From assembly GCA_020440605.1 (NCBI GenBank), contig JAGRNT010000005.1:128404-192403 (forward strand): a stretch of DNA of 64,000 nucleotides. Direction: 5' to 3'. Below are positions 11,676-50,406 of this stretch, piece by piece. The notes beneath the pieces are model-generated. The model did not search any database and was not told the DNA's origin. It saw only the letters and a program-made list of their open reading frames with translations. Source of the DNA: a bacterium (lineage in GTDB: Bacteria > 4484-113 > JAFGCY01). Within the stretch, counting starts at the first letter, position 1. Every line of letters starts with the position of its first letter. The translations under genes were made by a program, and so were the position numbers.

Positions 11676-11677
11676 TG

Positions 11678-12368: not shown

Positions 12369-12491
12369 TCATCACTCCAATTGAGGATTTAGGATCTCGG
12401 TTGTAGGACCCAGGGGATGTGTCGAGCTTTGCTCGACCAGAATGATTCCGGTGACGCGAAGCGTCACACAAACCCTACTCCCTACAACCTA
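12369..12491. repeat. MITE-like inverted-repeat element, family A copy
   Basis: gaggatttaggatctcggttgtaggacccagggg – gtgtcgagctttgctcgac – ggtgacgcgaagcgtcac – ccctactccctacaacctagctcctacaccc. Confidence 0.5.
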
Positions 12492-13061
12492 GCTCCTACA
12501 CCCTCGCTGCACCGTCTGCCTGATTGGCAGCTTTTCCCATTCATCGCGCAGGATCCTGTAACAGGGCGATGGCAACAGTCTGCCGGCCTTGTAGAGGTAG
12601 CCGTAATGCTTGCCGGCCAGCTGCATCCCGCAGGCCATCAGCCCGGCCTTGGCCCTGCTGTGCTCGTCCGTGGTGTCCGCCCAGACGCATTCGATCGGAA
12701 AGTTCTCGAACAGGTGGCAGAGATTGAGCAGCTTGGCCTCGCGGCCGAAGCCCTGGCCCCAGTGCTGCCTGGCAATGATCGTGCCGATCCAGGTGTTCGT
12801 GCGCGTTGCATTCATCCCGCCGTACTCCTCGAAGCCGACGGCCTCGCCGGTGTCCAGGCGCTCGATCGCGAAGCAGGAGTACTCGTCCGTGGACAGCATC
12901 CCGCCCGGTACGAACTCCTTTCGCTTCTGGAGTTCCGGCCAGTGCCAGTCCCCCCAGAATTCGTTGAAGTTGCTTTCCATGTCCGTCTGCACCTTCATCC
13001 ATTCATCCAGATCCCTGAAGGGTCTGATCCGGGTGCGCTCACCCGTGTACACAACATGCAT
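12489..13061 (-). CDS. GNAT family N-acetyltransferase, paralog 9
   Basis: The track start is TTG at 13073; the ATG is at 13059-13061 (MHVVYTGERTRIRPF…). Motif HWGQGFGREAKLLN. C-terminus …WEKLPIRQTVQRGCRS. Confidence 0.75.
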   Translation of the reverse strand: MHVVYTGERTRIRPFRDLDEWMKVQTDMESNFNEFWGDWHWPELQKRKEFVPGGMLSTDEYSCFAIERLDTGEAVGFEEYGGMNATRTNTWIGTIIARQHWGQGFGREAKLLNLCHLFENFPIECVWADTTDEHSRAKAGLMACGMQLAGKHYGYLYKAGRLLPSPCYRILRDEWEKLPIRQTVQRGCRS

Positions 13062-13074
13062 TGCTCTCTCCAAT

Positions 13075-13145
13075 AGTGGTGAGTGCTCAGTGGTCAGAAT
13101 TCAGATCAACCTGACTACTGACCACTGACTACTGACCACTCTCCT
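13075..13145. repeat. heptamer tandem/inverted repeat array (CTGACCA/CTGACTA), family B
   Basis: cagtggtcag … ctgactactgaccactgactactgaccact. Overlaps the last codons of paralog 10. Confidence 0.45.
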
Positions 13146-13674
13146 GCCATTCACTCCGTGTGATCCCGCAGTAGACGATTCCCGTCCACTTTCCGCGGGA
13201 GTACCAGTTGACCCGGGTCCGGCCCAGCTCACGCATCCCGCAGCTCAGCATCCCGCCGATCGCCGCCTGATGGCTGGCCAGCGTCCCGCCGTAGACCATC
13301 TCCACCGGGAAGTTGTCAAACAGCAGCTGCATGGCCAGCTGCTTGGCCTCCCGGCCGTAACCCCTGCGCCAGTGCGGCTCGAGGATCATCGTGCCGATCT
13401 CCGTGGCGGTGCGGCTGCCCGTCGGGAAGCGCAGCACCTCGTAGCCGACCAGCTCCCGCTCCGCCAGCGTCTCGATTGCCAGGAAGGAGAAGTAGTGCGA
13501 CTCGTCCAGCATCCCGCAGCGGGACCAGTCCTGCTCGAGTGAGGACAGTGCCGTCCAGCCGTAGCCCCACCAGTCGTCGCGCTGCATCCACAGCTCATGG
13601 TTGAGCTGTGCATACTCCGCGGCGCTGGCGAAGGGCCTGAGCCTGACGAGCCTGCCTTCGATTGTCATCTGCAT
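13129..13674 (-). CDS. GNAT family N-acetyltransferase, paralog 10
   Basis: ATG at 13672-13674 (MQMTIEGRLVRLRPF…). Motif HWRRGYGREAKQLA. Confidence 0.75.
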   Translation of the reverse strand: MQMTIEGRLVRLRPFASAAEYAQLNHELWMQRDDWWGYGWTALSSLEQDWSRCGMLDESHYFSFLAIETLAERELVGYEVLRFPTGSRTATEIGTMILEPHWRRGYGREAKQLAMQLLFDNFPVEMVYGGTLASHQAAIGGMLSCGMRELGRTRVNWYSRGKWTGIVYCGITRSEWQESGQ

Positions 13675-13679
13675 ACCAG

Positions 13680-13792
13680 TGCTCCTTCGGAACAGTAAGT
13701 GGTCAGTAGTCAGTGGTCAGTAGTCAGTGGTAAGGAAGGATTCAGTCTGACCACTGACCACTGACTACTCACCACTCACTACTGTCCAGCGA
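13680..13792. repeat. heptamer inverted repeat array (GTGGTCAGTAGTCAGTGG … CTGACCACTGACCACTGACTACT), family B
   Basis: Two opposed arrays of 7-nt units flank aggaaggattcagt. Together they form a long imperfect hairpin. Confidence 0.45.
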
Positions 13793-14360
13793 ATTCCCGC
13801 CGCTGCTGCTCGGCCAGTTCCCGGTAGGCCGGGGCGATCCAGCCGTAATGGTGCACCGCCACCGGCTCACCGAGCCACATCTGCATGCGCTCGAACACCA
13901 CCTCCAGCTCATAGCCGCAGTCCTTCAGCCAGCCGGCCTTGGCGGCTTCCGGCTCGATGATCTCGCAGCCGATCCGCACGGGGTCGTGCCAGTCCATCAT
14001 CAGCGACTCATAGGCCTTCAGCAGGTCGATGCCGACGGCGTCACGGTCCGCGATGTTGTCATCGACATGCACCGTGGTCCAGTAGACGCGGTTCTGGCCG
14101 CGCTGGATCAGGAAGCCCACCACACCGCCGGCCCTGCGCACCGCGACGTAGTACTTCTCCCCGCTGCTCCAGAGCCCGGGGTCCTTCTCGTCCTCGAACT
14201 TCTTCTTCAGCCGCTGCAGGGTCCAGGGCGTGGGCTTGCGTTCGCAGGGGTTCTGCGCCATCAGCGGGGCCAGCTGCTCGAGGTCCTTCTCCAGCACGGG
14301 GCGCAGCACGATATGCTCGCCCTCCACGAAGCCGCGTTCGGTGTTTGCGTTGTCAGTCAT
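13779..14360 (-). CDS. GNAT-like acetyltransferase, divergent paralog 11
   Basis: ATG at 14358-14360 preceded by an AGGAGA SD (MTDNANTERGFVEGEHIVLRPVLEKD…). Motif IVLRP plus a GNAT-like core. More divergent than paralogs 1-10. Confidence 0.6.
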   Translation of the reverse strand: MTDNANTERGFVEGEHIVLRPVLEKDLEQLAPLMAQNPCERKPTPWTLQRLKKKFEDEKDPGLWSSGEKYYVAVRRAGGVVGFLIQRGQNRVYWTTVHVDDNIADRDAVGIDLLKAYESLMMDWHDPVRIGCEIIEPEAAKAGWLKDCGYELEVVFERMQMWLGEPVAVHHYGWIAPAYRELAEQQRREFAGQ

Positions 14361-14970
14361 TTCCGTTCTCCTGTGTTCCATTCTCTCGTTCAGTCATGTT
14401 GCCACCGTTCCCACGGTGGACTTCCGCCAGCCAGGGCTGGCTGCGCCATTCCCGGCGCGTGATCACCCAGTGGCTCATCGCCGCGTGACTGCCGGCGCTG
14501 TACTGGCTGCAGGGCACGAGACCCTCGCAGCGCATCCCGCAGCGCCGCAGTCCGGTCAGGGCCCGCACATGCGTTGCCAGGGTCCGGGCGCTGACGCGTT
14601 CCACCGCGAAGTTCTCAAACATGTAGCACATTGCCAGGCGCTTGGCCTGCATGCCGAATCCGCGGCTCCAGTGGCGCCTGAGGATCAGCGTACCGATCAG
14701 GGCGTCGAGCTGGCCCTCGCACATCGGTGCGAGGATCTCGATGCCCACCGCCCGGTCATCCGTGCCGTCAGTGATCGCCAGCTGGCCCCAGCTGCCGTTG
14801 TCAATTCCGCTGTCACGCTCGAAGGTGCTGCGCAGAACCCGTTCGGTGCGCCACATCGGACCCCAGAACGGGTTGAACTCGTCCTCCAGCCCGCGCCGGA
14901 CGCGCATGAATTCATCCAGGTCCCTGAAGGGCCTGAGACGCACTGGTCCTGCGGCGTAGTGCAGCTGCAC
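14353..14970 (-). CDS. GNAT family N-acetyltransferase, paralog 12
   Basis: GTG start per the track (MQLHYAAGPVRLRPF…); no nearby in-frame ATG. Motif HWSRGFGMQAKRLA. First GNAT after the ABC ATPase. Confidence 0.65.
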   Translation of the reverse strand: MQLHYAAGPVRLRPFRDLDEFMRVRRGLEDEFNPFWGPMWRTERVLRSTFERDSGIDNGSWGQLAITDGTDDRAVGIEILAPMCEGQLDALIGTLILRRHWSRGFGMQAKRLAMCYMFENFAVERVSARTLATHVRALTGLRRCGMRCEGLVPCSQYSAGSHAAMSHWVITRREWRSQPWLAEVHRGNGGNMTERENGTQENGND

Positions 14971-15106
14971 GGCTCAGCGCCGTCCGGCTGCCTGGTTCGC
15001 TGGCAGGACCCGCCTGCCTGTGCCTGTCATTGTCATTGTCATTTCCCATTTCCTTTTCCCTGGATTTCCCGCGGACGATTCCGCGGGATGCTGCGGATGC
15101 GGCCTG

Positions 15107-16075
15107 TCAGGTCTGGTCCACATCCTCCTCCGCGCTCAGCCATTCGTGGCCGGTCAGTTCCATGAACACCGCTTCCATCCCCGGAGCCGCATCCCCCCTG
15201 GAGGCCTCCCCGCGCTCGATGCGCCGCGCCAGCACCTGCTGCTTCAGTTCCTCAGCCGTGCCGCGGGCCACGAAACGGCCCTCCGCCATCAGCGCGATCC
15301 TGCCGCAGAGCCGCTCCACCTCGTCCATGTCATGGCTGGTGAGCAGCACCGTGGCATCATGCGTGCGCTGCAGCTCGAGGATGTAGTCCTGCACGTCGCG
15401 CTTGCTGCGCGGGTCGAGACCCGTGGTCGGCTCGTCAAGCAGCAGCAGCACAGGGCTCGTCAGCAGCGCGCGCGCGATTGCCACCTTCTGCTGCATTCCG
15501 CGGCTCAGCTCCTGCATGCTGTCCGTCAGCCGGCCCTCCTCGAGCCCCAGCTTCTGGAGGATCTGCTCGGCGCGCTTCAATGCCGACCTGTCGTCAACAC
15601 CGTAGAGCCGTGCCGCATACAGCAGGTTCTCGTTCGGCGACAGCTTCTTGAAGAAGGCCGCATCCACGCTCACGCGGTTCAGCAGGCGCTGCACCTGGTA
15701 GGTGCTCTTCAGCGGGTCCATCCCGAACACGCGGATATCACCGCTGCTCTGCTCCAGCAGCGTGCTGATCATGCGGATCAGCGTGCTCTTGCCACTGCCG
15801 TTGTGCCCGACCACGCCGAAGATCTCGCCGCGCCTGAGCGTCATGCTGATGTTGTCAACAGCCAGCTTCTTCTTCTTCGGCCGGGCGATGCCGCGCCACA
15901 GCTTCGCGAAGCCCGAGGCAGGCGGCAGTTCCTTCTTCGGTACATTGACGATGAAGTGCTTGCTGAGGCCACGGAGCTCCAGGGCATCCGTGGCCGCATC
16001 CACCTGCATCAGTTCCAGTTCCGGGTGCAGGGGCCGGTGTTCGATCGCATCCATGTTGTCATCTCCTGCGGGCAT
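15107..16075 (-). CDS. ABC transporter ATP-binding protein (ABC-2 exporter type)
   Basis: Walker A GHNGSGKST, signature LSRGMQQKVAIARAL, Walker B LLLLDEPTTGLD, H-loop TSHDMDE. The ATG at 16073-16075 overlaps the methyltransferase stop. Confidence 0.85.
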   Translation of the reverse strand: MPAGDDNMDAIEHRPLHPELELMQVDAATDALELRGLSKHFIVNVPKKELPPASGFAKLWRGIARPKKKKLAVDNISMTLRRGEIFGVVGHNGSGKSTLIRMISTLLEQSSGDIRVFGMDPLKSTYQVQRLLNRVSVDAAFFKKLSPNENLLYAARLYGVDDRSALKRAEQILQKLGLEEGRLTDSMQELSRGMQQKVAIARALLTSPVLLLLDEPTTGLDPRSKRDVQDYILELQRTHDATVLLTSHDMDEVERLCGRIALMAEGRFVARGTAEELKQQVLARRIERGEASRGDAAPGMEAVFMELTGHEWLSAEEDVDQT

Positions 16076-39982: not shown

Positions 39983-40360
39983 CTAGCCTCCGCTCACGTA
40001 GTCCCGCGCGGCGTGGATCATTTCCTCTTCGGCGCGGATCGCGTCCAGATCGTCATTGTCAATATAGATCCAGCCCTTCATCGGCTTGCCGGCCCCCATC
40101 GGCTCGAAGGGCCGCGCGCGTCCCTCGGCCAGCATGTCGTTGGCAAGTTCCACGGGCAGCTTGAGCGTGATCCCGTTCTCGAAGGCCGAGGTGAACAGCT
40201 TCTTCTTCCCCGCCACCATCACATACCAGGAAGGATGGCCCATCATCTGGCCGCGGATGATGTTGTCGTCATCCGCGAACAGATCATCGAGCATGGCCGC
40301 GACATCCTCACGGTAGCCATGCCAGTCTGAGTTCTGCTTCTTCTTCGTTGCCACGGACAT
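39983..40360 (-). CDS. hypothetical protein (possibly TfoX-N/YjbR-like fold)
   Basis: 125 aa, AGGAG RBS. GKKKLFTSAFENGITLKLPVE weakly resembles the TfoX N-terminal domain. Confidence 0.4.
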   Translation of the reverse strand: MSVATKKKQNSDWHGYREDVAAMLDDLFADDDNIIRGQMMGHPSWYVMVAGKKKLFTSAFENGITLKLPVELANDMLAEGRARPFEPMGAGKPMKGWIYIDNDDLDAIRAEEEMIHAARDYVSGG

Positions 40361-40363
40361 ACT

Positions 40364-40462
40364 CCTGTAACTTCAGCGCGACCCGGATGCGCGGATGCGC
40401 AGCCGCAGCGCCAGACCGTCGAACACTCGTGTGAGATGGCAAATCATTCCGCCTGAAGGCCC
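40364..40462. repeat. direct-repeat modules X (cagcgcgacccggatgcgc…agccgcagcgccagaccgtc) and Y (cgcctgaaggcccggctacctgt), copy 1
   Basis: The same two modules recur in swapped order at 40947-41018, flanking the VOC gene 40501-40878. Confidence 0.4.
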
Positions 40463-40500
40463 GGCTACCTGTCTTCTGCTTCTCATTCTGTTCCTGTTTC

Positions 40501-40878
40501 TCAATTTCCTCTGCGCTGGTTCGTGCTGAACAGGCCGACATGGTTGCCATGCGGGTCCTCGAAGGAGGCCCACCATCCGAAGCCGGTGTCCTCGGCCCCG
40601 ATGTGCAGACGCTCGGTCAGGACTTTCCCGCCGAGCTGCCTGACCATGGCCAGCCGGGCCTCAAGGTCCTCGACCTTCACGAAGATCACCGGTCCGGCCT
40701 GCGGGCTTGGTTCTCGGCCGGTGGTGAAGCCGCCGCCCAGTCCGTGCTCGCCGTCATTGAAGAGCAGGTAGCTATCGGTGTTGGGCACGAAGCTCCAGCC
40801 GAACAGGCTGCCGTAGAAGTCCTGCGACTCGGTCAGGCTGCGTGAGGGAATGTTGATGTGGCAGATGCTGTCGGGCAT
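40501..40878 (-). CDS. VOC family protein (glyoxalase/bleomycin-resistance fold)
   Basis: ICHINIPSRSLTESQDFYGSLFGW…HGNHVGLFS. GAGGAA RBS. Confidence 0.7.
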   Translation of the reverse strand: MPDSICHINIPSRSLTESQDFYGSLFGWSFVPNTDSYLLFNDGEHGLGGGFTTGREPSPQAGPVIFVKVEDLEARLAMVRQLGGKVLTERLHIGAEDTGFGWWASFEDPHGNHVGLFSTNQRRGN

Positions 40879-40946
40879 ATGTTCCTCGGCTCCGGTTTGA
40901 TGATTCCGTTGGCAGGTCGTCTATGGCCTGTGCGTCAAACGTGCTG

Positions 40947-41018
40947 CGCCTGAAGGCCCGGCTACCTGTATCGCACCATCAGCGCGACCCGGATGCGCAG
41001 CCGCAGCGCCAGACCGTC
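40947..41018. repeat. direct-repeat modules Y then X, copy 2
   Basis: Near-identical to the 40364-40462 modules but in the order Y…X. Confidence 0.4.
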
Positions 41019-41044
41019 AAGCCCCTGGGCGAGACGGCAACACA

Positions 41045-41560
41045 CTATGCCAATGTACCACCGGGACGGACTGCGTTGTCAACTGCGCGGTCCTCGGCAT
41101 GCTCCTTCAGGCGCCTGCCGATCAGCTCCGTCCAGCCCTCAACATAGCCGGAGTGCGCATCCTCGCTGTACTGATTGAAGCAGTGGTGGCTGAGCTTCAG
41201 CACGGTGCCATTGCCATCTTCGGCATCCGCGAACACCAGCCGGAACATCCCGGCCCCGCTCCACATCACGCCCTCTGGAATCGAGAAGCTGATCATCCGC
41301 CCCGGGCTCAGGCTCTGCACGAAGGCCCAGAGGCAGCCGCCGCCACCCTCCCAGACCTCCAGCAGCCGTCCGCCGGGCTGCTGCTCGATCACGATCTCCG
41401 TAGTGCGCGGACCGCCCATTACCCAGTCGCGGCTCCACCACTGCGATATCCCGTTGACATAACAGTCGTAGACATGCGCGGGCGGAGCGGCGATTGTCAG
41501 CTCCTGCTCGATCTCCACGCTGGCAAGTTCAACCCTGTTCGTGCGTCCCTCGATCTGCAT
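41045..41560 (-). CDS. SRPBCC family protein (Aha1/AHSA1-like)
   Basis: ATG at 41558-41560 (MQIEGRTNRVELASVEIEQELTIAAPPAHVYDCYVNGISQWW…). Confidence 0.65.
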   Translation of the reverse strand: MQIEGRTNRVELASVEIEQELTIAAPPAHVYDCYVNGISQWWSRDWVMGGPRTTEIVIEQQPGGRLLEVWEGGGGCLWAFVQSLSPGRMISFSIPEGVMWSGAGMFRLVFADAEDGNGTVLKLSHHCFNQYSEDAHSGYVEGWTELIGRRLKEHAEDRAVDNAVRPGGTLA

Positions 41561-41561
41561 G

Positions 41562-42194
41562 CTAGTCCCGGTCCTCATACTCCACTGGGGCAATCCCCGC
41601 AGGGATCACGGCATCAGCGATGTCCTCGCCGGCGCAGTAGCGGCGGAAGTTCTCGGCAACGAGCTTCGTCCAGCCCATGGCGTAACCCTCCGCGCCGTCT
41701 ATCTCCGCATCGTACTGCTGGAAGGCGCGGTGCTCCAGACGGAAATCCGTGCCACCCTCCGCCCCCGGGCTGAAGCTGACATTGATCGAACCGGCCCCGC
41801 TCCAGAAGCTGCCCTCCGGCACGCTCATACCGAGGTAGCTGCCGGGGATCACCTGGATCACATTGGCCCAGAGGCTTTCGCCGTTCTCGTCAATCTCCAG
41901 CAGGCGTCCGCCGGCATAGGCCTCAAGCTGCATGTTGAGGCAGCCCGCGCCGCCCATCGTGAAGTCGCGGCTCCACCAGCCGGAGGTCTCCGCGGTGAAC
42001 AGCTCATAGACATCCCAGGGCTCGCGCTCCAGGTGCATTGTCAGCGTCACGCCGGCATCTCCGACCGTGGTTTCCTGCCAGGCGGTTTCCAGCATGTAGG
42101 GCTGGCCTGTTTTTCCCTCGCCATCCTGCGCGAGCGCCACTCCCGGGATTGCCAGACTGATGAGCAGCAGCGCGCTTGCGATCCGTGTTCCCAT
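41562..42194 (-). CDS. SRPBCC family protein with signal peptide
   Basis: MGTRIASALLLISLAIPGVALAQDGEG signal peptide, then the Aha1-like core (…YELFTAETSGWWSRDF…). Confidence 0.65.
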   Translation of the reverse strand: MGTRIASALLLISLAIPGVALAQDGEGKTGQPYMLETAWQETTVGDAGVTLTMHLEREPWDVYELFTAETSGWWSRDFTMGGAGCLNMQLEAYAGGRLLEIDENGESLWANVIQVIPGSYLGMSVPEGSFWSGAGSINVSFSPGAEGGTDFRLEHRAFQQYDAEIDGAEGYAMGWTKLVAENFRRYCAGEDIADAVIPAGIAPVEYEDRD

Positions 42195-42220
42195 TGTCAA
42201 CTCCTTCGGGCCGGCGCGGC

Positions 42221-42748
42221 TCAGGCCTGCTGCCGGGCCCATTGCGGCTCATGACCGAGCCCCTGTCTTGTTCCATTCTCGCACCATTCCCGCAGCCGGC
42301 CACCCAGCAGATCATTCCAGCCGGTGTAGTAATTGTCCTGGCGTTCCTTCCCGAAGGGGCCGTGGGCACGGTGGCGGAACTTCAGCAGGGTGCCGCCCTG
42401 GCCGTCATCCGCGAGGCTGTAGCTCCAGTTGCCGGTGGCGGGCCACTGCAGGCCGCAGCTGCCCTCCAGCTCCAGATAGCTGTCCGGTGTCAGACCGCCG
42501 ACGATGCCCCACAGCACCTGCGTGCCGTCGGCACCCTTCTCCAGCATCGCCCCTCCGGCCCGCAGTTCGACCAGGATCTCCTGTGTGTCATCACAGCAGA
42601 GGTAGGGCGCTCCCCACCAGGCCTGGATCTCCTCCGTGAGTGCGCGCCAGACCCGCTTGGGCGGTGCGGCAATCGTGTACTCCGCCTGCACATCCATCAG
42701 GTTGAAGCTGACAGCGGGCAGGCTGCCTTCACTGTGTGTTTCAGACAA
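42221..42748 (-). CDS. SRPBCC family protein
   Basis: TTG start with an AAGGAG SD (the first ATG is 51 nt downstream). …YTIAAPPKRVWRALTEEIQAWWG…. Confidence 0.6.
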   Translation of the reverse strand: MSETHSEGSLPAVSFNLMDVQAEYTIAAPPKRVWRALTEEIQAWWGAPYLCCDDTQEILVELRAGGAMLEKGADGTQVLWGIVGGLTPDSYLELEGSCGLQWPATGNWSYSLADDGQGGTLLKFRHRAHGPFGKERQDNYYTGWNDLLGGRLREWCENGTRQGLGHEPQWARQQA

Positions 42749-42771
42749 TCCGTACTCCTTGGCAATGAACC

Positions 42772-43131
42772 CTAGGGATGGCCCGGCGGGTTCTGGTGCA
42801 GGCCGACGATGTTGCCACTGGGGTCCCTGAAGAAGGCGGACCAGCCGACATCCGGGCTGATCTCCTTTTTCGGCACGACCACCGTGCCACCCAGCTCGGT
42901 GACCTTCGCGAGAACTGCGTCGATGTCGTCAACATTCACGTAGACCACAGTCTGCGGTGTGCCCTCCGGGCAGTTCTCACGGAAGCCACCACCGGGGCCG
43001 CTCTCCGGCATCCAGACCTCGTAGCCCGGCATGAAGGACTGCATCTTCCAGCCGAACAGGCCCGAGTAGAACTCAGCCTGGGCCTTGTTGTCAGCGGATG
43101 CGAATTCAATCCAGTCGATATGGTGTGCCAT
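42772..43131 (-). CDS. VOC family protein
   Basis: ATG at 43129-43131 (MAHHIDWIEFASADNKAQAEFYSGLFGW…DPSGNIVGLHQ). Confidence 0.7.
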   Translation of the reverse strand: MAHHIDWIEFASADNKAQAEFYSGLFGWKMQSFMPGYEVWMPESGPGGGFRENCPEGTPQTVVYVNVDDIDAVLAKVTELGGTVVVPKKEISPDVGWSAFFRDPSGNIVGLHQNPPGHP

Positions 43132-43191
43132 CTCTGTTCTCCCTGTGCAGCGGAAGCGGTGCACGGCTGCACACCGCTTCCCTGCCGAGTG

Positions 43192-43545
43192 TTATTCCTG
43201 ACTCCAGATCCCGACGCAGGTGCCGCTCGGGTCGAGGAACAGCGCGAAGCTGCCGTGCTCATCCGAGATCTTGGTCTTCGGCATCACCTGCGTGCCGCCG
43301 TTGGCCATGATCTGCTCCATGCTCTGATCGATGTTCTCGACATGGATGTAGATCAGGGTCTTCTGCATGTCCGGGCCCTTCTCCTCAACGCGGAAGCCGC
43401 CGCCCAGTTCGCCCTCGCCGGGCACCCAGCCGCCGTAGTTCGGCATCATGTCGGAGCACTGCCAGTTGAAGACCTTCGAATAGAAGTCCTTGGTGCCCTC
43501 CAGGTCGTGGGAGACGATTTCGACGTGACAGATCTTGTGGATCAT
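43192..43545 (-). CDS. VOC family protein
   Basis: MIHKICHVEIVSHDLEGTKDFYSKVFNW…DPSGTCVGIWS. Confidence 0.7.
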   Translation of the reverse strand: MIHKICHVEIVSHDLEGTKDFYSKVFNWQCSDMMPNYGGWVPGEGELGGGFRVEEKGPDMQKTLIYIHVENIDQSMEQIMANGGTQVMPKTKISDEHGSFALFLDPSGTCVGIWSQE

Positions 43546-43625
43546 TGTGTTTTCCTACCTCTCAGAATGTATGTGAATCAACTGCATCAGCCGCGCCCGC
43601 TGGGCACAGCCCTCAATGCACTGTG

Positions 43626-44156
43626 TCAGTGGTTGTGGCCGGCATGCGGATCCGCGGCCTCGGTCTCTTCCTCCATGGCGGGCATGGACTGGTTGGAGGA
43701 GAACAGGCCGATCAGATTGCCGGAGGGGTCATGGAACATCCCGATGTAGCCTTCGCCGACGTACAGCTCCATCCCGGTGGACTTGCCGCCTGCGGCCTCG
43801 ATTGCTGCATAGCTGTCCGCAATGCTCTCGCTGTAGATGTAGAACACCACGCCGCCATCCGGGTTGGGCTTGCCGTCGCCGGTGAAGCCGCCCATCGCGG
43901 TGCCGCCGTCACTCCAGAACATGTAGTCCATGCCCTCGGGTCCCGGCATCGCGGTCCAGCCGAATACATCGCCGTAGAAGGCTGCCGACTGGTCCAGATC
44001 GAGACTGGGGATCTCGATGTGCACGACCTGTCCGGCCTGGGGGTTCCACTCCGGCATCGGAGCATCGCCTTCCTGGGCTCCGGCAAGGGAGCAAAGCAGC
44101 ATGAGCGCCAGCAGCGCTGAAACAAAGAAACGCATTTTCCTGACCATCCTTTCCAT
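43626..44156 (-). CDS. VOC family protein with signal peptide
   Basis: MRFFVSALLALMLLCSLAGAQEG signal peptide, VOC core HIEIPSLDLDQSAAFYGDVFGW, His-rich C-terminus. Confidence 0.65.
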   Translation of the reverse strand: MERMVRKMRFFVSALLALMLLCSLAGAQEGDAPMPEWNPQAGQVVHIEIPSLDLDQSAAFYGDVFGWTAMPGPEGMDYMFWSDGGTAMGGFTGDGKPNPDGGVVFYIYSESIADSYAAIEAAGGKSTGMELYVGEGYIGMFHDPSGNLIGLFSSNQSMPAMEEETEAADPHAGHNH

Positions 44157-44206
44157 ATTGCCAACGGGACCTTCCCGCCGGCGAAAATGCCAGTATCAGC
44201 CGGTCC

Positions 44207-44731
44207 TCAGCCGTTGGGGCTGATCAGACCGAGCATATTCCCCTGGGGATCGTTGAACAGCCCGACAGTCGCCCTGCCGCCCTCGATCTCCATCGTGAAG
44301 TCAATGGACCGCCCGCCGGCGCGGTTGATCCGCTTGAAGCTCTCGTCAATGTCATCGCTGTAGAGGTAGATCACCACACCGCGCCCCTCACCGGGTGCCA
44401 CGAAGCTCGTGATCCCGCCGGTGTTGCCGGCCGGGTCGACCCAGTTGAGGATCTTTCCGCCCGTTTCCTCGTTGTCGCTGATCTCCCAGCCGAAGACCTC
44501 GCTGTAGAACTCACGCGACTCCTCCAGATCGTTCGACGGAATGTCCACGCGGATCATTGCACCGTCCAGCATCCCGGGCATCCCGGCTGCCAGCTCCCGG
44601 CCGCTCAGTTCTCCGGCCACGGCAGGTTCAGGCTCCGCGGCAGCCACATCCTGGGCCTGGACCCGGTTGAGCCCGAGCATCAGCAGCAGGCAGAGCAGTA
44701 CGATCAGGTTCAGCGAATGCAGCACTTTCAT
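44207..44731 (-). CDS. VOC family protein with signal peptide
   Basis: MKVLHSLNLIVLLCLLLMLGLNRVQAQD signal peptide. VOC core RVDIPSNDLEESREFYSEVFGW. Confidence 0.65.
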   Translation of the reverse strand: MKVLHSLNLIVLLCLLLMLGLNRVQAQDVAAAEPEPAVAGELSGRELAAGMPGMLDGAMIRVDIPSNDLEESREFYSEVFGWEISDNEETGGKILNWVDPAGNTGGITSFVAPGEGRGVVIYLYSDDIDESFKRINRAGGRSIDFTMEIEGGRATVGLFNDPQGNMLGLISPNG

Positions 44732-44754
44732 GATTCAGATTCCCCGAATAGCTT

Positions 44755-44784
44755 AACTATACACATGTTTGGTGGTAATTGCAA
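44755..44784 (-). promoter_or_regulatory. candidate sigma70-type promoter (minus strand)
   Basis: Read on the minus strand: TTGCAA, 17-nt spacer, TATAGT. Lies in an AT-rich intergenic region upstream of the gene starting at 44731. Confidence 0.4.
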
Positions 44785-44820
44785 GAGCCTGTCACCAGAC
44801 ATTATGTATATTCCACAGAC

Positions 44821-45330
44821 CTACTTGTTCATTTCCGCAAGCTGGCGCCAGTCGAGGTCATCCTCCACCCAGGAGCGTAGGGCCTTCATCAACCCCACGC
44901 TGCCCTCCGTGCGGCCATCGAGCATCGCCTGGCTGATGTGGCCCATCATCTCGCCGCGCGTGCGCAGCAGGGTGCCGCCGTCCTGCTCGATCAGCTTCCA
45001 GATCCCGCCGCTGTTGATGGAGCCGAACATGCCCCACTGGCCGACCGCGGCAAAGGCATTCGGCGGATCACAGTAAGTGACCATCGCATACAGCGCTCCG
45101 TTACCCTTGTCGTCGAAGCGCTCCTCCCAGCGGCCCATCACGCGCGGCTCGAAGACCACGGTGCTGCCGGGCTTGAAGCGGTGCATCCACCAGCTGTCCA
45201 TCCCGTCCACGATCTTCTCCCAGGCCTTGCCGATCGGCGCGCGCAGGAAGATCTCGTACTCCGAGGAGACGAGCTCCACCTTGAGCGGGTCCTGGAAGTT
45301 GAAGCCGACTTCCCTGTTGTCAGAATCCAT
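44821..45330 (-). CDS. SRPBCC family protein (Aha1-like)
   Basis: ATG at 45328-45330 with a GGAGA SD (MDSDNREVGFNFQDPLKVELVSSEYEIFLRAPIGKAWEKI…). Confidence 0.65.
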   Translation of the reverse strand: MDSDNREVGFNFQDPLKVELVSSEYEIFLRAPIGKAWEKIVDGMDSWWMHRFKPGSTVVFEPRVMGRWEERFDDKGNGALYAMVTYCDPPNAFAAVGQWGMFGSINSGGIWKLIEQDGGTLLRTRGEMMGHISQAMLDGRTEGSVGLMKALRSWVEDDLDWRQLAEMNK

Positions 45331-45359
45331 TGCTTTCTCCAATTCCTTGATCTTGGTTG

Positions 45360-45827
45360 TCAGCCGCGCCCCTCGAGCAGCGGCTTGAGTTTCCCGGCAT
45401 AGACCTCGGCGCTGCCGGCCAGCATGTTGGCGATCATCTTCTGTGAGACATCCCCGGCCCCGAGCGTCACCTCGCGTAGCAGCGTGCCGCCATCCTGCGC
45501 ACTGAGCTCCAGGTCGAAGATGAAATGCACGGCCTTCAGCATCCCGACATTGCCGCTGTAGCGCAACCGGTAGGGCGGCATGATCAGCTCCACCCTGCCA
45601 TAGAGCACACCGTTGCCGCTTTCATCGAACTGCTCGAAGAAGCGTCCGCCGATGCGCGGCTCGAGGATGATGCTGTGCGGGTTCTCGCTCCAGGTGTGGG
45701 TCCAGTACAGATGCGGTTCCTCCACGAGCGCACGGAAGGTGTGCTCCACCGGGGCATTGATGAACACCTCGTAGTCGATGCGGAACTTGCCGACCTCGCT
45801 CAGCAGCTGGTGTGTATCATGCTCCAT
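45360..45827 (-). CDS. SRPBCC family protein (Aha1-like)
   Basis: ATG at 45825-45827 (MEHDTHQLLSEVGKFRIDYEVFINAPVEHTFRALVEEPHLYWTH…). The track ORF is over-extended upstream. Confidence 0.65.
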   Translation of the reverse strand: MEHDTHQLLSEVGKFRIDYEVFINAPVEHTFRALVEEPHLYWTHTWSENPHSIILEPRIGGRFFEQFDESGNGVLYGRVELIMPPYRLRYSGNVGMLKAVHFIFDLELSAQDGGTLLREVTLGAGDVSQKMIANMLAGSAEVYAGKLKPLLEGRG

Positions 45828-45828
45828 C

Positions 45829-46431
45829 TCAGTCTTCCCGGCCGGCACTGCGGTCCACGCGCTCGCCATCCTCAATGAAGCGCTTGAGTGAAAGCCAGAC
45901 CTCGCGCGTGCCCTCGACCCGACCCTCGCCGATCTCCTCCAGTTCACCGATCGCCGCGCCATTGGTGGTGATCAGCGTGCCGCCGTCCAGTTCCTCGAAC
46001 TTCCAGACCCCGCCGCTGACATTCGCGCGCGGCATGCCCCACTGTCCGTCGAGCTTCACGATCCGCCCGTCTTCGATGTAGAGCACATGCCCGAAGATCG
46101 CCCCCGTGTCACCGCCGCGGAACTGTTCATAGACGCGTCCGCCGGCCCAGGGCTCAAACAGGATGCGGCTGTCCGGCTTGTAGCTGTGCGGCCACCAGCC
46201 GTCGATGTCGAGGATCGCCTTTTGCCAGACCTCATCCACAGGGGCATCGATCCACAGCCGGGTTTCGATGCGCAGCATCTGCGCTGTTTCCAGTTCGCCA
46301 TAGGTCACTTCGATCTCCGCCGGCACCTGCGGCTGCGCCTCCTCTTCCTGCGCGAGGCAGGCGAAGGGCAGAAGCAGCAGCACTGCCAGCAGCAGTGTCG
46401 CAGCATTTGTCTTCATTCGCATGATTGTCAT
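45829..46431 (-). CDS. SRPBCC family protein with signal peptide
   Basis: MTIMRMKTNAATLLLAVLLLLPFACLAQEEE signal peptide, then an Aha1-like core (…IDAPVDEVWQKAILDIDGWW…). Confidence 0.6.
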   Translation of the reverse strand: MTIMRMKTNAATLLLAVLLLLPFACLAQEEEAQPQVPAEIEVTYGELETAQMLRIETRLWIDAPVDEVWQKAILDIDGWWPHSYKPDSRILFEPWAGGRVYEQFRGGDTGAIFGHVLYIEDGRIVKLDGQWGMPRANVSGGVWKFEELDGGTLITTNGAAIGELEEIGEGRVEGTREVWLSLKRFIEDGERVDRSAGRED

Positions 46432-46483
46432 AACAGTTTCCACCTTGTTGATTGATTGGCGGCATTGCCCCGCCGCCGGTTCG

Positions 46484-47062
46484 TCAGGCCAGACGTTCCA
46501 CCGGAGCGCCGGCCAGTCTGAGCATCGTCTGCAGCACGCTGCGGTGCCCGTTCTCATGCGCCACCAGGAAAAGGATGGCCGACACCAGGCTGCCAGGGCC
46601 CGCGGCCTCCAGAGCGGCGGTGTCCTCTCCCTTCTCCCTGAGTGCACTGAGCTGCTGCGTGTAACTCCCCTGCGTGCCAACCGTTGGCATGAGCAGCGTG
46701 CTGAAGCCCTGCTCCAGCCAGGGCTGGATCAGGCTGCGGCTGAACTGCAGGCGCTCGATGATCTCCGTGAGACTGCCCTCGCGGAACTGCCAGGGCTGAT
46801 CGCGTCCCGGGTAGTCAGCCGCCCAGCGTACGTAGCCGGCCTTCTCGCCGGAGAGCATCTCCGCCACGTAGGCGCGGTAGTCAGCGATGTGCTTGAGCTG
46901 CTCACCGACGCTGAAGCTGTAGCTGCCATCGGGCATCTCTGGTCGCCAGTCCACCAGCTCCTCAGTGACCACGGCCGCGATCTTGTCCGTGTAGTCCAGC
47001 ATCGCCGTGATGCTCCAGATGGCATCGATGATGCGCGGATCATTGGCTGCCTGCATATCCAT
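46484..47062 (-). CDS. DinB/YfiT-like family protein
   Basis: 192 aa, four-helix DinB_2-like pattern with conserved His (…LFLVAHENGHRSVL…). Confidence 0.55.
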   Translation of the reverse strand: MDMQAANDPRIIDAIWSITAMLDYTDKIAAVVTEELVDWRPEMPDGSYSFSVGEQLKHIADYRAYVAEMLSGEKAGYVRWAADYPGRDQPWQFREGSLTEIIERLQFSRSLIQPWLEQGFSTLLMPTVGTQGSYTQQLSALREKGEDTAALEAAGPGSLVSAILFLVAHENGHRSVLQTMLRLAGAPVERLA

Positions 47063-47087
47063 TCACTTGTCTCCTTTCAATCGGTAA

Positions 47088-47666
47088 TCAGTTGTCAACC
47101 GGCTCTGCGCTGGCCTGCGGCTTCACGAGTGCTGCAATCACCAGCCCGGCGAGCGTCCAGCCGATCAGCCCGTCGCTCATTTCAATCAGCAGATGGCGCA
47201 TGGGATACATGAAGAAGCCGCCGTTGATCCAGCTGGTGCAGAGGAAGGCCGCGGCCCCGAACAGCGTGCAGAGCAGCACGCGGCCACCGTAACCGGAGCG
47301 GCCGGGCAGCAGCAGCATGAACTGGGCCACGAGCAGCGCGGCTACGATCGCACCGAGCAGGCCCCGCAGATGCGGCATGGGGTCGTTCATGTCCATCCCG
47401 TCAGGGCTGAAGCTCATGATGCCGATGCCGGGCACACTCTTCGCGAGCTGGATGTGCTCCTCACGGCTCATGCCCTCCACCGTTCCCGGGTAGTAGTTCA
47501 GGCCCGGCTCCGCACCCATCTCCAGCAGCAGGGCGTCCAGCCGTGCGCTGTGTTCGATGCCGTTGAGGCTCTCCATGTGGAAGGGCAGCAGCGCCCAGGA
47601 GATGAAGAGCCAGATGTAAAGGGCCAGTCCACCCAGGGCTCCGGCCAGCAGTACCCGCAGATTCAT
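47088..47666 (-). CDS. membrane protein (about 4 TM), hypothetical
   Basis: ATG at 47664-47666 (MNLRVLLAGALGGLALYIWLFISWALLPF…). The track ORF is over-extended upstream. Confidence 0.55.
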   Translation of the reverse strand: MNLRVLLAGALGGLALYIWLFISWALLPFHMESLNGIEHSARLDALLLEMGAEPGLNYYPGTVEGMSREEHIQLAKSVPGIGIMSFSPDGMDMNDPMPHLRGLLGAIVAALLVAQFMLLLPGRSGYGGRVLLCTLFGAAAFLCTSWINGGFFMYPMRHLLIEMSDGLIGWTLAGLVIAALVKPQASAEPVDN

Positions 47667-47679
47667 TCCAGTCCTCCTG

Positions 47680-48027
47680 TTACTTCCCATCATTGTCGTC
47701 CCTGTGCAGGTCCCGTTCCACATGGTCCTTGAGCCGCAGGAGCGAGCTGGACCAGAGTTCCGCATACGGCCCCATCCAGCGCTCGTAGACCTGGCGGATC
47801 GGCACCGTGTTGAGGTAGTTGAAGCGCTGCCGCCCTTCGCGCCTGACGAGCACCAGCCCGGCATCCGCCAGGATCCCGAGATGCTTCATCACGGCGAAGC
47901 GTGACAGCTCCGCAAAAGCCCCGCACAGCTGGCCTGTGGTCTTCGGGCCCGGCTTCAGCAGATCCAGGATCCTCCGCCTCGTCGGATCCGCCAGGGCCTT
48001 GAAGACTGCATCCAGCGCATCATCCAT
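47680..48027 (-). CDS. ArsR/SmtB family transcriptional regulator
   Basis: LADPTRRRILDLLKPGPKTTGQLCGAFAELSRFAVMKHLGILADAGLV is a winged-HTH. First gene of the minus-strand detox array. Confidence 0.8.
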   Translation of the reverse strand: MDDALDAVFKALADPTRRRILDLLKPGPKTTGQLCGAFAELSRFAVMKHLGILADAGLVLVRREGRQRFNYLNTVPIRQVYERWMGPYAELWSSSLLRLKDHVERDLHRDDNDGK

Positions 48028-48324
48028 GTTATGTGACTAAATAGTAACATGTTTTTTGGATGTGTCAAGTGGAGAAGGAGCTGCCCGCTTCAGCGGCAGT
48101 AGCGGCCAGGTCTTGGCCTTGTGATAGTGCGAATAGTCTGAGTAGTACGAATAGTGGGGAAGTAGAAGATACTTGAGAGTCGGGTAGAGGTGCGGCCCTG
48201 CCGCACCATGGAGAGGATGTAGCGAATGGCCAACCAACATGATCCTGGCAATCCAGTGATGCAGGCAAGCTGCGCGCCTCGGCATTCCCTCCGGTAGAAT
48301 CCAGGTGCTGAGGAGATTGAGCTG

Positions 48325-50406
48325 ATGAGACCGGGAACATACATATATGTAGTGCTGGCGGGCCTGCTGCTGGGCAGTGGCTGTGCGAGGGCAGGTGCGC
48401 CGGAGGCGTCCCAGCCGGTCAATCCGCAACTGCCAGCTGCGACTGCTGAAGCTGCTTTCAGCGAGGGTATTCCATCCCCCTCCGCGCTGCTGCGCGCCGC
48501 CAGTGCGGACCATCCCGGCCAGCAGCTCGACGGCTCCTCATATTCAACGGCTTTCGGTCCACAGCGGGTTGCAGGGGCGGACAGCACTGCCGTATTCACA
48601 CCGGACTGGCTGCAGGGTGACAGTGAATCGGCGATGCAGCCAGCCTGGGCCGCCTGGATGCTGGATCTTTCCTCTGAGACCGACACGAATGTGCTTAAGC
48701 TCGACTGGAAGGCCGCCCCGCAGCAGGCCTATGTCGCGCTCGCCGACTGGGGCAGCGACCGCTGGATCTGGCGCAGCTTAAGCAATCCGGCGGAGCTGGA
48801 ATTCCTGCCCGCTGCATCCCTGCTGCATCCTGATGACAACACCCTGGCCTGCGTGATCCTGGCAACGGGCCAGGACCAGTCCGTGCTGAACGGCATCCAG
48901 GCCGTGTTCCGGGACGAGCTGCCTGGTGGCTTCATCAATGACGGAAACCCCCTCGGGATGAACCTCGAGGGCCTGGCCGACTGGGGCCGCAGCATCCCCT
49001 TCACCGATGTCTTCAGGCTCTCACGCAGCTGGATCCCGCAGGAGGCCGAGGGCTGGACCTGGGATACCGGTGAAACGCTGGATATCGATGCCAACGGCTG
49101 GGTTGCCAGCCTTGAGCCGGGTCAGGCCGCCGGCAATGTGCTCGTGACCAATAATGCGGGCAACTACCCGGAGGGAGACTACATCTGCCTCTACGACGGC
49201 GAGGGCACGATCACCTGGGGCATCAATGCCAGTGTGGTCAGTGAGGAGCCGGGCCGCCAGGTGGTGCACATCACCCCCGGAGCTGACAACACGGCGCACA
49301 TCAAGATCACCGCCACCAACTCAGCCGATCCCGTGCGCAACATCCGCCTGATCCTGCCGGGGCACGAGGCGGACTACATGGACAACATCTGGAATCCGGA
49401 TTTCGTTGCCACGCTGGAACCCTTCTCCTGCCTGCGCTTCATGGATCTGCAGAACACCAACGGTACGCAGGTTGAGCACTGGAGCGAGCGCACCACACCT
49501 GATCATTCCAGCCAGGCCCGCGCTGCCGGGATCTGCCCGGAGTATCTGGTGCTGCTTGCCAACCAGGCGCAGAAGGACCCCTGGTTCTGCATGCCGCACC
49601 GCGCCGATGACGACTACATCACGCAGTTCGCGACGCTCGTGCGCGACACCCTGGACCCGGAGCTGCGCATCTACATCGAGTACTCCAACGAGGTCTGGAA
49701 CGGTTCCTTCCCCGCCGCCGGCTATGCCCAGGAGCGCGGGCTGGCACTCGGCCTGTCGGAGAATGCCTACGAGGCGCACCTGCGTTACTACTCCCAGCGT
49801 TCCGTCGAGATCTTCGCGATCTGGCAACAGGTCTTCAGCGGGCAGGAGGACAGGCTCGTGCGCGTGATCAGCGGCCAGCATGTCAACGCCTGGGCGGCGG
49901 ACCAGATCCTCGACTGGCAGAATGCCTACGAGCACGCCGACTGCTATGCCACCGCGCCCTACTTCGGCGGCGGGATCGGCAGTTCCCCGAATGCGGATGC
50001 CGCGTTGACGATGTCACTGGCGGAGATCGTGCAGTTCTGCGCGGACAGCCTGCCCCAGAACTATGCCACGATGCAGGAGAATGCCGAGGATGCCCACAGC
50101 CGCGGTCTGAAGCTGATTGCCTACGAGGGAGGGCAGCACATGGTGGGCTACGGCGAGTGGCAGAACAATGATGCCCTGACGGCGAAGCTGACCGCTGCCA
50201 ACCGCGATCCCGGCATGCGCCAGGTCTACGCGGACTATCTTGCCAACTGGAGCCTGGCGGGTGGCGAGCGCTTCATGGCCTTCTCGCACATCGGCGGCTA
50301 TGGCCGCTACGGCTCCTGGGGCGTGATGGAACGCCTGGCCCAGCCGCTCAGCGAAAGCCCCAAGCTGCAGGGCCTGCTGGACTGGCAGGCCACGCAGCAG
50401 GACTGA
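48325..50406 (+). CDS. lipoprotein, hypothetical (possible glycoside-hydrolase-like C-terminal region)
   Basis: MRPGTYIYVVLAGLLLGSGC lipobox. N-terminal domain VALADWGSDRWIWRS is homologous to that of the PPC lipoproteins. GAGGAG RBS with TAGAAT upstream. Confidence 0.7.
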   Translation: MRPGTYIYVVLAGLLLGSGCARAGAPEASQPVNPQLPAATAEAAFSEGIPSPSALLRAASADHPGQQLDGSSYSTAFGPQRVAGADSTAVFTPDWLQGDSESAMQPAWAAWMLDLSSETDTNVLKLDWKAAPQQAYVALADWGSDRWIWRSLSNPAELEFLPAASLLHPDDNTLACVILATGQDQSVLNGIQAVFRDELPGGFINDGNPLGMNLEGLADWGRSIPFTDVFRLSRSWIPQEAEGWTWDTGETLDIDANGWVASLEPGQAAGNVLVTNNAGNYPEGDYICLYDGEGTITWGINASVVSEEPGRQVVHITPGADNTAHIKITATNSADPVRNIRLILPGHEADYMDNIWNPDFVATLEPFSCLRFMDLQNTNGTQVEHWSERTTPDHSSQARAAGICPEYLVLLANQAQKDPWFCMPHRADDDYITQFATLVRDTLDPELRIYIEYSNEVWNGSFPAAGYAQERGLALGLSENAYEAHLRYYSQRSVEIFAIWQQVFSGQEDRLVRVISGQHVNAWAADQILDWQNAYEHADCYATAPYFGGGIGSSPNADAALTMSLAEIVQFCADSLPQNYATMQENAEDAHSRGLKLIAYEGGQHMVGYGEWQNNDALTAKLTAANRDPGMRQVYADYLANWSLAGGERFMAFSHIGGYGRYGSWGVMERLAQPLSESPKLQGLLDWQATQQD

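Follow-up and report, generated by a model that had tools for sequence, protein, structure and literature searches.

The closest described counterpart of the gene array analyzed here appears, from its domain content, to be the Rv0576-Rv0577 pair of Mycobacterium tuberculosis. The domains listed for Rv0576, which is encoded in an operon with TB27.3/CFP32, are a DNA-binding domain, START, and a four-helix bundle (2026 START review, PMC13525633). In InterProScan, its residues 1-81 match a metal-responsive regulator of the helix-turn-helix (HTH) type and its residues 254-424 a "mycothiol-dependent enzyme", and Rv0576 has been suggested to regulate Rv0577 (2025 genomics paper, PMC12806118). Several roles have been proposed for Rv0577/CFP32, namely, detoxification of methylglyoxal and glycerol by-products, neutral-red staining, and TLR2 agonism, and the issue is not settled. 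Other small proteins of the SRPBCC and VOC folds protect cells by capturing toxic compounds: CalC acts by binding and self-sacrifice, and TnmS proteins act by stoichiometric binding (sequestration). Here, we analyze an ArsR-headed array of such proteins in a 64,000-nucleotide (nt) stretch of DNA from a bacterium of the GTDB lineage 4484-113; JAFGCY01 (assembly GCA_020440605.1, contig JAGRNT010000005.1, positions 128,404 to 192,403 of the forward strand; hereafter, the window, with all coordinates counted from its first letter). We found no description of ArsR-DinB-SRPBCC-VOC arrays in the literature. The comparisons described below place this array in the largest class of forms taken by a widespread ArsR-SRPBCC module of unassigned function; the array is kept in its own lineage and echoed in several other uncultured ones.

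The array consists of 15 consecutive genes on the minus strand (39983-48068), from arsR down to a gene that we denoted X, in the order arsR, a gene for a protein with four transmembrane helices (4-TM), DinB_2, S1-S2-S3, V1-V2-V3-V4, S4-S5-S6, V5, and X. Eleven of these genes encode small-fold paralogs, six of the SRPBCC family (S1 to S6) and five of the VOC family (V1 to V5). The genes, with protein lengths in amino acids (aa) and the basis of each assignment, are as follows:

47680-48027, minus strand: arsR, ArsR/SmtB-type winged-helix repressor, 115 aa (Pfam HTH_20/HTH_5, NCBIfam)
47088-47666, minus strand: 4-TM membrane protein, 192 aa (four hydrophobic helices)
46484-47062, minus strand: DinB_2-family protein, 192 aa (Pfam PF12867)
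45829-46431, minus strand: S1, predicted exported SRPBCC protein, 200 aa (BLASTP, signal-peptide heuristic)
45360-45827, minus strand: S2, cytoplasmic SRPBCC/AHSA1 protein, 155 aa (Pfam PF08327)
44821-45342, minus strand: S3, cytoplasmic SRPBCC protein, 173 aa from TTG 45342 or 169 aa from ATG 45330 (BLASTP)
44207-44731, minus strand: V1, predicted exported VOC protein, 174 aa (Pfam PF00903)
43626-44156, minus strand: V2, predicted exported VOC protein, 176 aa, or 169 aa from ATG 44135 (Pfam PF00903)
43192-43545, minus strand: V3, cytoplasmic VOC protein, 117 aa (Pfam PF00903)
42772-43131, minus strand: V4, cytoplasmic VOC protein, 119 aa (Pfam PF00903)
42221-42748, minus strand: S4, cytoplasmic SRPBCC/AHSA1 protein, 175 aa, TTG start (Pfam PF08327)
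41562-42194, minus strand: S5, predicted exported SRPBCC protein, 210 aa (BLASTP, signal-peptide heuristic)
41045-41560, minus strand: S6, cytoplasmic SRPBCC/AHSA1 protein, 171 aa (Pfam PF08327)
40501-40878, minus strand: V5, cytoplasmic VOC protein, 125 aa (Pfam PF00903)
39983-40360, minus strand: X, 125-aa protein without a recognizable family (orthologs follow the array in relatives)

The genes are tightly packed, with spacings of 1-89 nt within the block and of 166 and 140 nt on the two sides of V5. S2 and S6 each start 1 nt past the stop of the preceding gene (S1 and S5, respectively), and the 4-TM gene follows arsR by 13 nt. S3 and S4 possibly start with TTG instead of ATG. The NCBI annotation, where V1 through ArsR are seven consecutively numbered proteins, is consistent with this gene model. 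An earlier note, made from the DNA letters alone, had described an array of eleven paralogs headed by arsR; gene calls, Pfam searches, and BLASTP bear out the gene content, order, and strand, and given that none of the array genes carries a frame disruption, the paralogs are intact genes and not pseudogenized fragments. The limits drawn in that note require extension at one end: a start at 40361 leaves out X, which is conserved together with the array. A scan with hidden Markov models (HMMs) of the two families identified no additional SRPBCC or VOC gene elsewhere within the 64-kb window. The base composition of the array does not differ from that of the flanks, which contain no biosynthetic, metal-transport, or defense-system genes. 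PADLOC detected no defense system, with only generic winged HTH matches for ArsR and none for the seven other proteins tested, and an Rfam scan of the window produced no match.

In a collection of 5.8 billion proteins, V1 has only eight relatives, three of which come from long metagenomic contigs that carry the same locus (L005, L006, and L096). The flanking peptidase M3 and thyX genes are shared by all three contigs, and ABM, NUDIX, and ffh genes are present further out in L005 and L006. The array genes have one-to-one orthologs in these loci, except for S1, which is missing from all three, and S5, which is missing from L005; the syntenic genomes encode nine to eleven SRPBCC/VOC paralogs each. 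Orthologs are 83-88% identical for ArsR, 56-65% for the 4-TM and DinB proteins, and 55-81% for the SRPBCC and VOC proteins (S2, 74-76%; S3, 69-72%; V3, 79-81%; V5, 58-61%). The paralogs of the window share only 25-40% identity with each other, compared to 55-88% for the orthologs; the duplications that gave rise to the array therefore predate the divergence of the four genomes, with the copies retained ever since and no recent amplification.

The 3' end of the array shows traces of gene birth and death, namely, a fragment of X in L005 and repeats flanking V5 in the window. The fragment is a 46-aa open reading frame (ORF) between V5 and X of L005 (13541-13681) that matches the N-terminus of X at 65% identity and was left by a duplication. 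The direct repeats, of 62 nt (79% identity) and 23 nt (100%), are common to the S6-V5 and V5-X gaps of the window (40392-40472 and 40947-41051), and one copy of the 62-nt repeat takes in the last codons and the stop of S6. Neither repeat occurs anywhere else in the window or in any of the fetched loci. The counterparts of these two gaps in L096 span 20 and 0 nt. A local duplication or deletion probably left these repeats behind. Protein X itself accompanies the array in all four syntenic genomes (orthologs 66-67% identical) and was not found in the L091 or L093 arrays discussed below. It has no Pfam, NCBIfam, or Protein Data Bank (PDB) match; a single ortholog shows a faint match to YjbR (PF04237, E = 0.025, 15.7 bits vs a cutoff of 30.1), which X of the window does not show, and the single-sequence AlphaFold2 model of X has a predicted local distance difference test (pLDDT) score of 53. 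At the opposite end of the array, a plus-strand gene divergent from arsR (48325-50406) encodes a 693-aa protein with a lipoprotein-like N-terminus (LLLGSGC) and no Pfam or NCBIfam match; genes for 704-aa and 692-aa proteins are located in the same position in L006 and L096, respectively.

Beyond these close relatives, the ArsR subfamily is very large (more than 3,200 homologs at E <= 1e-10, many 60-85% identical). Using the ArsR alignment as an anchor, we fetched 80 loci from named GTDB genomes. In the 22 closest of these, which come from Acidobacteriota, Phycisphaerae, Bacteroidota, Nannocystales, and Eisenbacteria (ArsR 46-61% identical), each ArsR is accompanied by one SRPBCC protein of the same subfamily, encoded next to it or fused to it in frame, and no VOC, DinB, or TM gene lies within 10 kb. 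One locus (L024) contains two ArsR-SRPBCC units, with about 5 kb between them. Pfam confirmed the fusions found in L021 and L030, and those in L024, L025, L027, and L029 were counted from in-frame ORFs with both a tblastn match to ArsR and an SRPBCC HMM match. Apparent fusions in L039 and L055 were rejected because Pfam detected no HTH domain in the long ORFs, which ArsR overlaps in another frame.

The comparative search for ArsR-(SRPBCC/VOC)n arrays that had been proposed at the outset also yielded metagenomic ArsRs, 76-84% identical to that of the window, at the head of large arrays in four loci: P0014, L091, L093 (GCA_020849855.1), and L098. Gene orders in these arrays differ from that in the window, and the flanks are mostly different. 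Genes annotated as "hypothetical" in these loci turned out, in HMM searches, to be homologs of the TM, DinB, SRPBCC, and VOC families of the window, and each array combines members with and without signal peptides. The P0014 locus carries two DinB genes, about five SRPBCC genes, and six VOC-domain genes, two of these fused to YCII. A small version, with three SRPBCC genes, one DinB gene, and a second ArsR, was found in L099 (ArsR 66% identical). Thus, these ArsR modules form a continuum from a pair or fusion to a large array, and the array architecture recurs in at least four other uncultured lineages and is no one-off expansion. The initial impression that the array is unusual accordingly stands for its size, the 22 closest loci having one SRPBCC per ArsR and no VOC, and falls for its uniqueness. 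A metagenome scan with a narrow DinB-derived peptide pattern returned one 1.1-kb fragment.

Several observations on these arrays concern domain fusions and gene adjacency. YCII::VOC fusions are present in L091 (15333-16220) and in the P0014 locus (334 and 313 aa), one of them with a signal peptide; YCII, which the window lacks, is a fifth family of small domains associated with such arrays. The V4-S4 adjacency is present in L098 too. There, an apparent 299-aa VOC::SRPBCC fusion (14953-15852) was rejected: three-frame translation resolved it into a V4 ortholog and an S4 ortholog separated by a 1-nt frameshift, with a normal VOC C-terminus and stop in the second frame, followed by a ribosome-binding site and the ATG of the S4 ortholog. 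The frameshift is probably an assembly error, given that "_4x_" in the contig name suggests low coverage, and automatic gene calls on low-coverage contigs can mimic domain fusions. Distant homologs of the 4-TM protein (30-33% identical) are encoded by single genes outside any array in L094 and L095, one in a Kapabacteria metagenome-assembled genome and one beside a gene for a WYL-domain regulator.

A uniform heuristic, applied to all proteins, detected signal-peptide-like N-termini in S1, S5, V1, and V2 and in none of the seven other paralogs or their orthologs; it also flagged the first helix of the TM protein. Alignments show that the four N-termini are extensions relative to the cytoplasmic paralogs. 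They share a layout consisting of a positively charged start, an uncharged hydrophobic core of 12-16 residues, a small-x-small motif, and then Gln and an acidic residue, with predicted cleavage sites at FACLA/QEEE in S1, GVALA/QD in S5, NRVQA/QD in V1, and SLAGA/QE in V2. No twin-arginine motif is present in these N-termini, and in V1 the predicted signal peptide is followed by an acidic, Ala- and Pro-containing linker. In the orthologs, the cleavage motif is constant (VQA/QD in V1, AAA/Q in V2, and AQA/QD or ALA/QE in S5 of L006 and L096) and the hydrophobic cores differ. Because the motif is kept while the core diverges, the signal peptides of V1, V2, and S5 look real. Provisionally, S1, S5, V1, and V2 are strongly predicted to be exported via the Sec pathway and processed by signal peptidase I. 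Thus, of the "four to five" signal peptides originally noticed, four are recovered and the fifth is not.

The earlier note had also considered secreted VOC proteins to be atypical. Among the 150 best representatives of the array's VOC subfamily in a library of 1.84 billion proteins, 17 (11%) have Sec or lipoprotein-like N-termini, which makes exported members, as far as such N-termini indicate, a minority and not a rarity. In neighbor-joining trees, V1 and V2 are sister exported paralogs (bootstrap 88/100), and S1 clusters with exported SRPBCC proteins of L091 and L093 (bootstrap 99/100), a clade of exported proteins common to three lineages. One exported SRPBCC of L091 falls nearest to the cytoplasmic S6, which suggests that signal peptides have also been gained or lost. 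A single cross-lineage clade of all exported VOCs was considered and dropped as unsupported (bootstrap 44/100).

All five VOC proteins pass the Pfam model PF00903 (32.0-42.2 bits, cutoff 20.6). Three of the six SRPBCC proteins, S2, S4, and S6, pass PF08327 (27.2, 32.0, and 23.3 bits, cutoff 22.1); S1, S3, and S5 have no Pfam match and are joined to the family by BLASTP (S1-S3, 1e-32; S2-S3, 3e-22; S5-S6, 4e-33) and by the family HMM. The Pfam assignment thus holds for every VOC and for half of the SRPBCCs. Among solved structures, the VOC profile is best matched by Rv0577 (3OXH, 5e-25) and 2R6U (1e-18), and Rv0577 is also the nearest PDB entry for V3 (9e-11). The "Glyoxalase/bleomycin resistance" structures 5UMP and 5W27, which we take to be TnmS-type proteins, are matched weakly (3e-5). 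For the SRPBCC profile, the best solved matches are TxnO9 (2e-15) and CalC (2.5e-11). The second-best library match of the VOC profile, P0129, has 1431 aa with eight matched VOC stretches and would be a giant multi-VOC protein.

The metal-site residues of the VOC proteins, a check that had been proposed as a means to separate enzymes from binding proteins, were compared at two positions of the glyoxalase I tetrad (His/Glu/His/Glu), the first-strand His and the last-strand Glu, the middle ligands not being reliably alignable. At both, the tetrad is disrupted: the position of the last metal-binding Glu is occupied by Gly in all 15 VOC sequences (DPxGNxxGL), and V1 has Arg and V4 has Trp in place of the first-strand His, with both substitutions kept in orthologs. 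Canonical glyoxalase I chemistry is therefore unlikely in the VOC proteins of the array. Their scores with the glyox_I model TIGR00068 are far below the cutoff, and the 15-sequence alignment contains no Cys pair. V2 ends in a His-rich tail, DPHAGHNH (43626-43660), which may be a periplasmic metal-binding tail; L005 has DPHAGHNHD, and L006 has no such tail.

The ArsR protein matches HTH_20 (44.1 bits, cutoff 27) and HTH_5 (32.4 bits, cutoff 22) in Pfam and HTH_metalloreg (NF033788) in NCBIfam (60.2 bits, cutoff 55). Its second-best NCBIfam match, the SdpR model NF033789, stays below the threshold (55.9 bits vs a cutoff of 100). A C-terminal extension, VPIRQ[IV]YERWMxPYAELW, is kept across the subfamily, and the nearest solved relatives are uncharacterized ArsRs from structural genomics. 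In a 22-sequence alignment, no invariant or near-invariant Cys and no His/Asp/Glu set is found in helices alpha-3 and alpha-5, and the sole invariant His lies in the recognition-helix motif VMKHL. To judge from these residues, this is an ArsR without metal sensing. The DinB protein passes DinB_2 (PF12867, 32.8 bits, cutoff 24.8), and its His triad (H58, H169, and H173) is invariant in all seven DinBs from six arrays, as expected of an active metalloenzyme of the DinB/YfiT type. In the 4-TM protein, an invariant ISWxxLPxH motif sits at the outer end of the first helix and is followed by a loop of about 70 residues that is poorly modeled and should face the periplasm by the positive-inside rule. 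This protein has no informative structural neighbor and falls below the cutoff for DUF1761 (PF08570, 18.7 bits vs 31).

Two promoters and one candidate operator were mapped in the array:

48041-48068, minus strand: P_arsR, sigma-70-like promoter TTGACA-16-TGtTACTAT (10/12 consensus matches, extended -10 TG)
44756-44784, minus strand: P_V1, sigma-70-like promoter inside the array, TTGCAA-17-TATAGT, within the 89 nt between S3 and V1 (consensus scan)
48025-48051, no strand assigned: candidate ArsR operator, perfect inverted repeat CATGTTA-N13-TAACATG that spans the -10 box and the arsR start codon

By number, such minus-strand sites are no better than chance (2 found vs 1.4 expected in the consensus scan). 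In L005 and L006, almost no changes are seen between the -35 box and the ATG at P_arsR, compared to 55-88% identity for the proteins, or in the -35 to -10 block of P_V1, the neighboring intergenic DNA having diverged. Because both promoters are nearly invariant while the adjoining intergenic DNA and the proteins diverged, there is good evidence, from conservation, that P_arsR and P_V1 are both functional. P_V1 is the TTGCAA-N17-TATAGT promoter that had been noticed in the initial inspection, confirmed at 44784-44756. The palindrome over the -10 box and start codon of arsR is conserved in L005 and L006 apart from a single mismatch and is a natural candidate operator through which ArsR could repress its own gene. 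The two promoters have the element AAACATGT in common, an 8-mer with four copies in the window compared to 0.6 expected; two of these copies, located in GC-rich coding DNA, are apparently chance occurrences, and AAACATGT was therefore dropped as a shared operator. No convincing terminator was detected between array genes. With a second, strongly conserved promoter before V1, the block is not one simple ArsR operon.

We tentatively favor the interpretation of the array as a two-promoter island in which a non-metal ArsR is combined with a fixed set of small ligand-binding or detoxifying proteins that serve both the cytoplasm and the periplasm. Small-molecule binding or detoxification is plausible from the family relationships. 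In the mechanism that we envisage, ArsR would bind the candidate CATGTTA-N13-TAACATG operator, which covers the -10 box and start codon of its gene, and repress arsR-TM-dinB-S1-S2-S3, until a hydrophobic or electrophilic small molecule lifts the repression; an SRPBCC domain, the normal partner or fusion of this ArsR subfamily, may be the sensor. Catalysis would likely fall to DinB, which could be a metal-dependent, probably thiol-dependent transferase. Each of the SRPBCC and VOC paralogs might bind a different chemotype, which it would sequester or modify much as CalC (SRPBCC) and the TnmS and bleomycin-binding proteins (VOC) do, with the exported copies catching compounds ahead of inner-membrane crossing. 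Several points weigh against this scheme. The signal peptides were assigned by the heuristic and conservation, and P_arsR and P_V1 have only the short AAACATGT in common, control of both by ArsR being possible. The similarity to CalC, TxnO9, and TnmS is at the superfamily level only (E 1e-15 to 3e-5) and does not imply the same ligands, and Rv0577/CFP32 has been tied to methylglyoxal and glycerol metabolism, not to xenobiotics.

A broader reading of the same gene set, possible if on the doubtful side, is that of an undescribed ancient cassette (ArsR, 4-TM, DinB, clades of SRPBCC and VOC, and sometimes YCII) that forms a broad-spectrum inducible "molecular sponge", with SRPBCC sensing for ArsR and about ten differently shaped pockets in the periplasm and cytoplasm that would capture and neutralize diverse natural-product toxins. 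It is less probable that the array detoxifies endogenous reactive metabolites, such as methylglyoxal-like aldehydes, quinones, and electrophiles, through VOC and DinB with the SRPBCCs as carriers. The closest solved relative of the VOCs, Rv0577/CFP32, has been proposed for just such by-products, the DinB His triad is intact, DinB-superfamily enzymes are typically thiol-dependent, and the flanks consist of housekeeping genes. However, with Gly for the last Glu in 15 VOCs and no first-strand His in V1 and V4, glyoxalase I chemistry of the canonical kind is unlikely; four exported paralogs are hard to square with a purely cytoplasmic by-product; and eleven divergent pockets suggest many ligands, not one. 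In a further reading, the SRPBCC and VOC proteins would act in sensing or co-regulation and not as effectors, relaying ligand state, including that of the periplasm via the TM protein, to ArsR in an SdpI/SdpR-like manner. This possibility draws on the recurrent in-frame fusion of the ArsR subfamily to SRPBCC, the sensing role suggested for the START domain of Rv0576 (PMC13525633), the membrane-protein gene 13 nt after arsR, and the sub-threshold SdpR match. However, eleven sensors for one regulator are implausible, the SdpR match is far under the cutoff, the TM gene has no fixed place with respect to arsR among arrays, distant TM homologs occur without an array, and DinB with its intact metal site resembles an enzyme, so that we regard the relay as improbable.

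The assignment of the regulator to the ArsR/SmtB family brings up metal or metalloid resistance or homeostasis, with a metal-sensing ArsR and CadI/ArsI-like VOCs, some of them periplasmic, that bind or transform the metal(loid). CadI and ArsI are VOC proteins encoded beside ArsR-type regulators, and the His-rich tail of V2 in the window and L005 would fit such a role; its absence from L006, the lack of Cys or a His/Asp/Glu set at alpha-3/alpha-5 in the ArsR alignment, the lack of a complete metal site or a Cys pair in the VOCs, and the lack of a metal transporter, reductase, or chaperone in the array and flanks make it quite improbable. Least credible, to the point of being nearly dismissed, is a set of natural-product tailoring enzymes, with polyketide cyclase-like SRPBCCs and ring-cleaving VOCs. 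TxnO9, the best solved match of the SRPBCC profile, belongs to the trioxacarcin pathway, and one gene of the L098 array is of the Polyketide_cyc type, but no polyketide synthase, nonribosomal peptide synthetase, terpene, or other core biosynthetic genes are present within 10 kb in any syntenic locus, where the flanks are peptidase M3, thyX, ABM, NUDIX, and ffh, and the predicted export of four members misfits cytoplasmic tailoring.

Elsewhere in the window, the tandem GNAT array to which the earlier note had pointed as a second expansion of small xenobiotic-handling domains is present as described: seven tandem Acetyltransf_3 genes, encoding proteins of about 185-215 aa, occupy 9215-13674 on the minus strand. 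An eighth ORF next to them (13779-14381) has no Pfam match.

ArsR-SRPBCC pairs are among the commonest bacterial gene neighborhoods without an assigned function, and the M. tuberculosis version of the module, Rv0576-Rv0577/CFP32, encodes a known antigen of unclear biochemistry. The locus described here and its relatives represent a natural dissection of this module, in which the four domain families are separate, amplified, and conserved genes, and thus offer a domain-by-domain route into the function of the ArsR-SRPBCC(-DinB-VOC) module. The paralog set suggests multiple ligands, and the predicted exported copies imply substrates from outside the cell. If sequestration or detoxification is indeed the function, these arrays would form a natural store of proteins that bind reactive natural products and provide a handle on the function of Rv0576/Rv0577; if it is not, the long-term retention of eleven paralogs still makes the array a clean case for the study of subfunctionalization.

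Each of the known systems resembles the array in part. The SdpR-SdpI system of Bacillus subtilis likewise has an ArsR-family gene followed by one for a small polytopic membrane protein. It differs in the regulator (the SdpR score of the array ArsR being 55.9 vs 100) and in the membrane protein, which in the array has no detectable similarity to SdpI and four helices where SdpI has six; moreover, the gene order varies in other arrays. CalC and TxnO9 are of the same AHSA1-type helix-grip fold family as the array SRPBCCs and are the best solved matches, but they belong to enediyne and trioxacarcin clusters, of which there is none in the window, the identity is low, and CalC is cytoplasmic and present in a single copy. 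The TnmS1-3 and bleomycin/mitomycin-binding proteins share with the array the VOC fold without catalytic metal chemistry and the encoding of several paralogs together; unlike the array VOCs, they are cytoplasmic and located in producer clusters, and the similarity to them is far weaker than that to Rv0577/2R6U.

The ArsR-SRPBCC pairs and fusions, widespread in Acidobacteriota, Planctomycetota, Bacteroidota, Myxococcota, and Actinomycetota, contain the same ArsR subfamily, with its C-terminal extension, and an SRPBCC protein recognized by the HMM at E 1e-17 to 1e-39; they differ from the window in having a single SRPBCC per ArsR and none of the other families nearby. The likeness is greatest to Rv0576-Rv0577, where, taking the domains of Rv0576 from the literature, all four families of the array (ArsR, SRPBCC/START, DinB-like, and VOC) are found. 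The mycothiol-dependent enzyme domain of Rv0576 is taken here to be a member of the DinB superfamily. Rv0577 consists of two VOC domains; it shares with the array VOCs the Gly of the DPxGxxVGL motif and, in domain 1, has the same first-strand Trp as V4. In M. tuberculosis, however, there are two genes with fused domains and no predicted export, whereas in the window the families are encoded by separate genes, with SRPBCC present six times and VOC five times, four of these proteins predicted to be exported, and with the 4-TM protein and X in addition.

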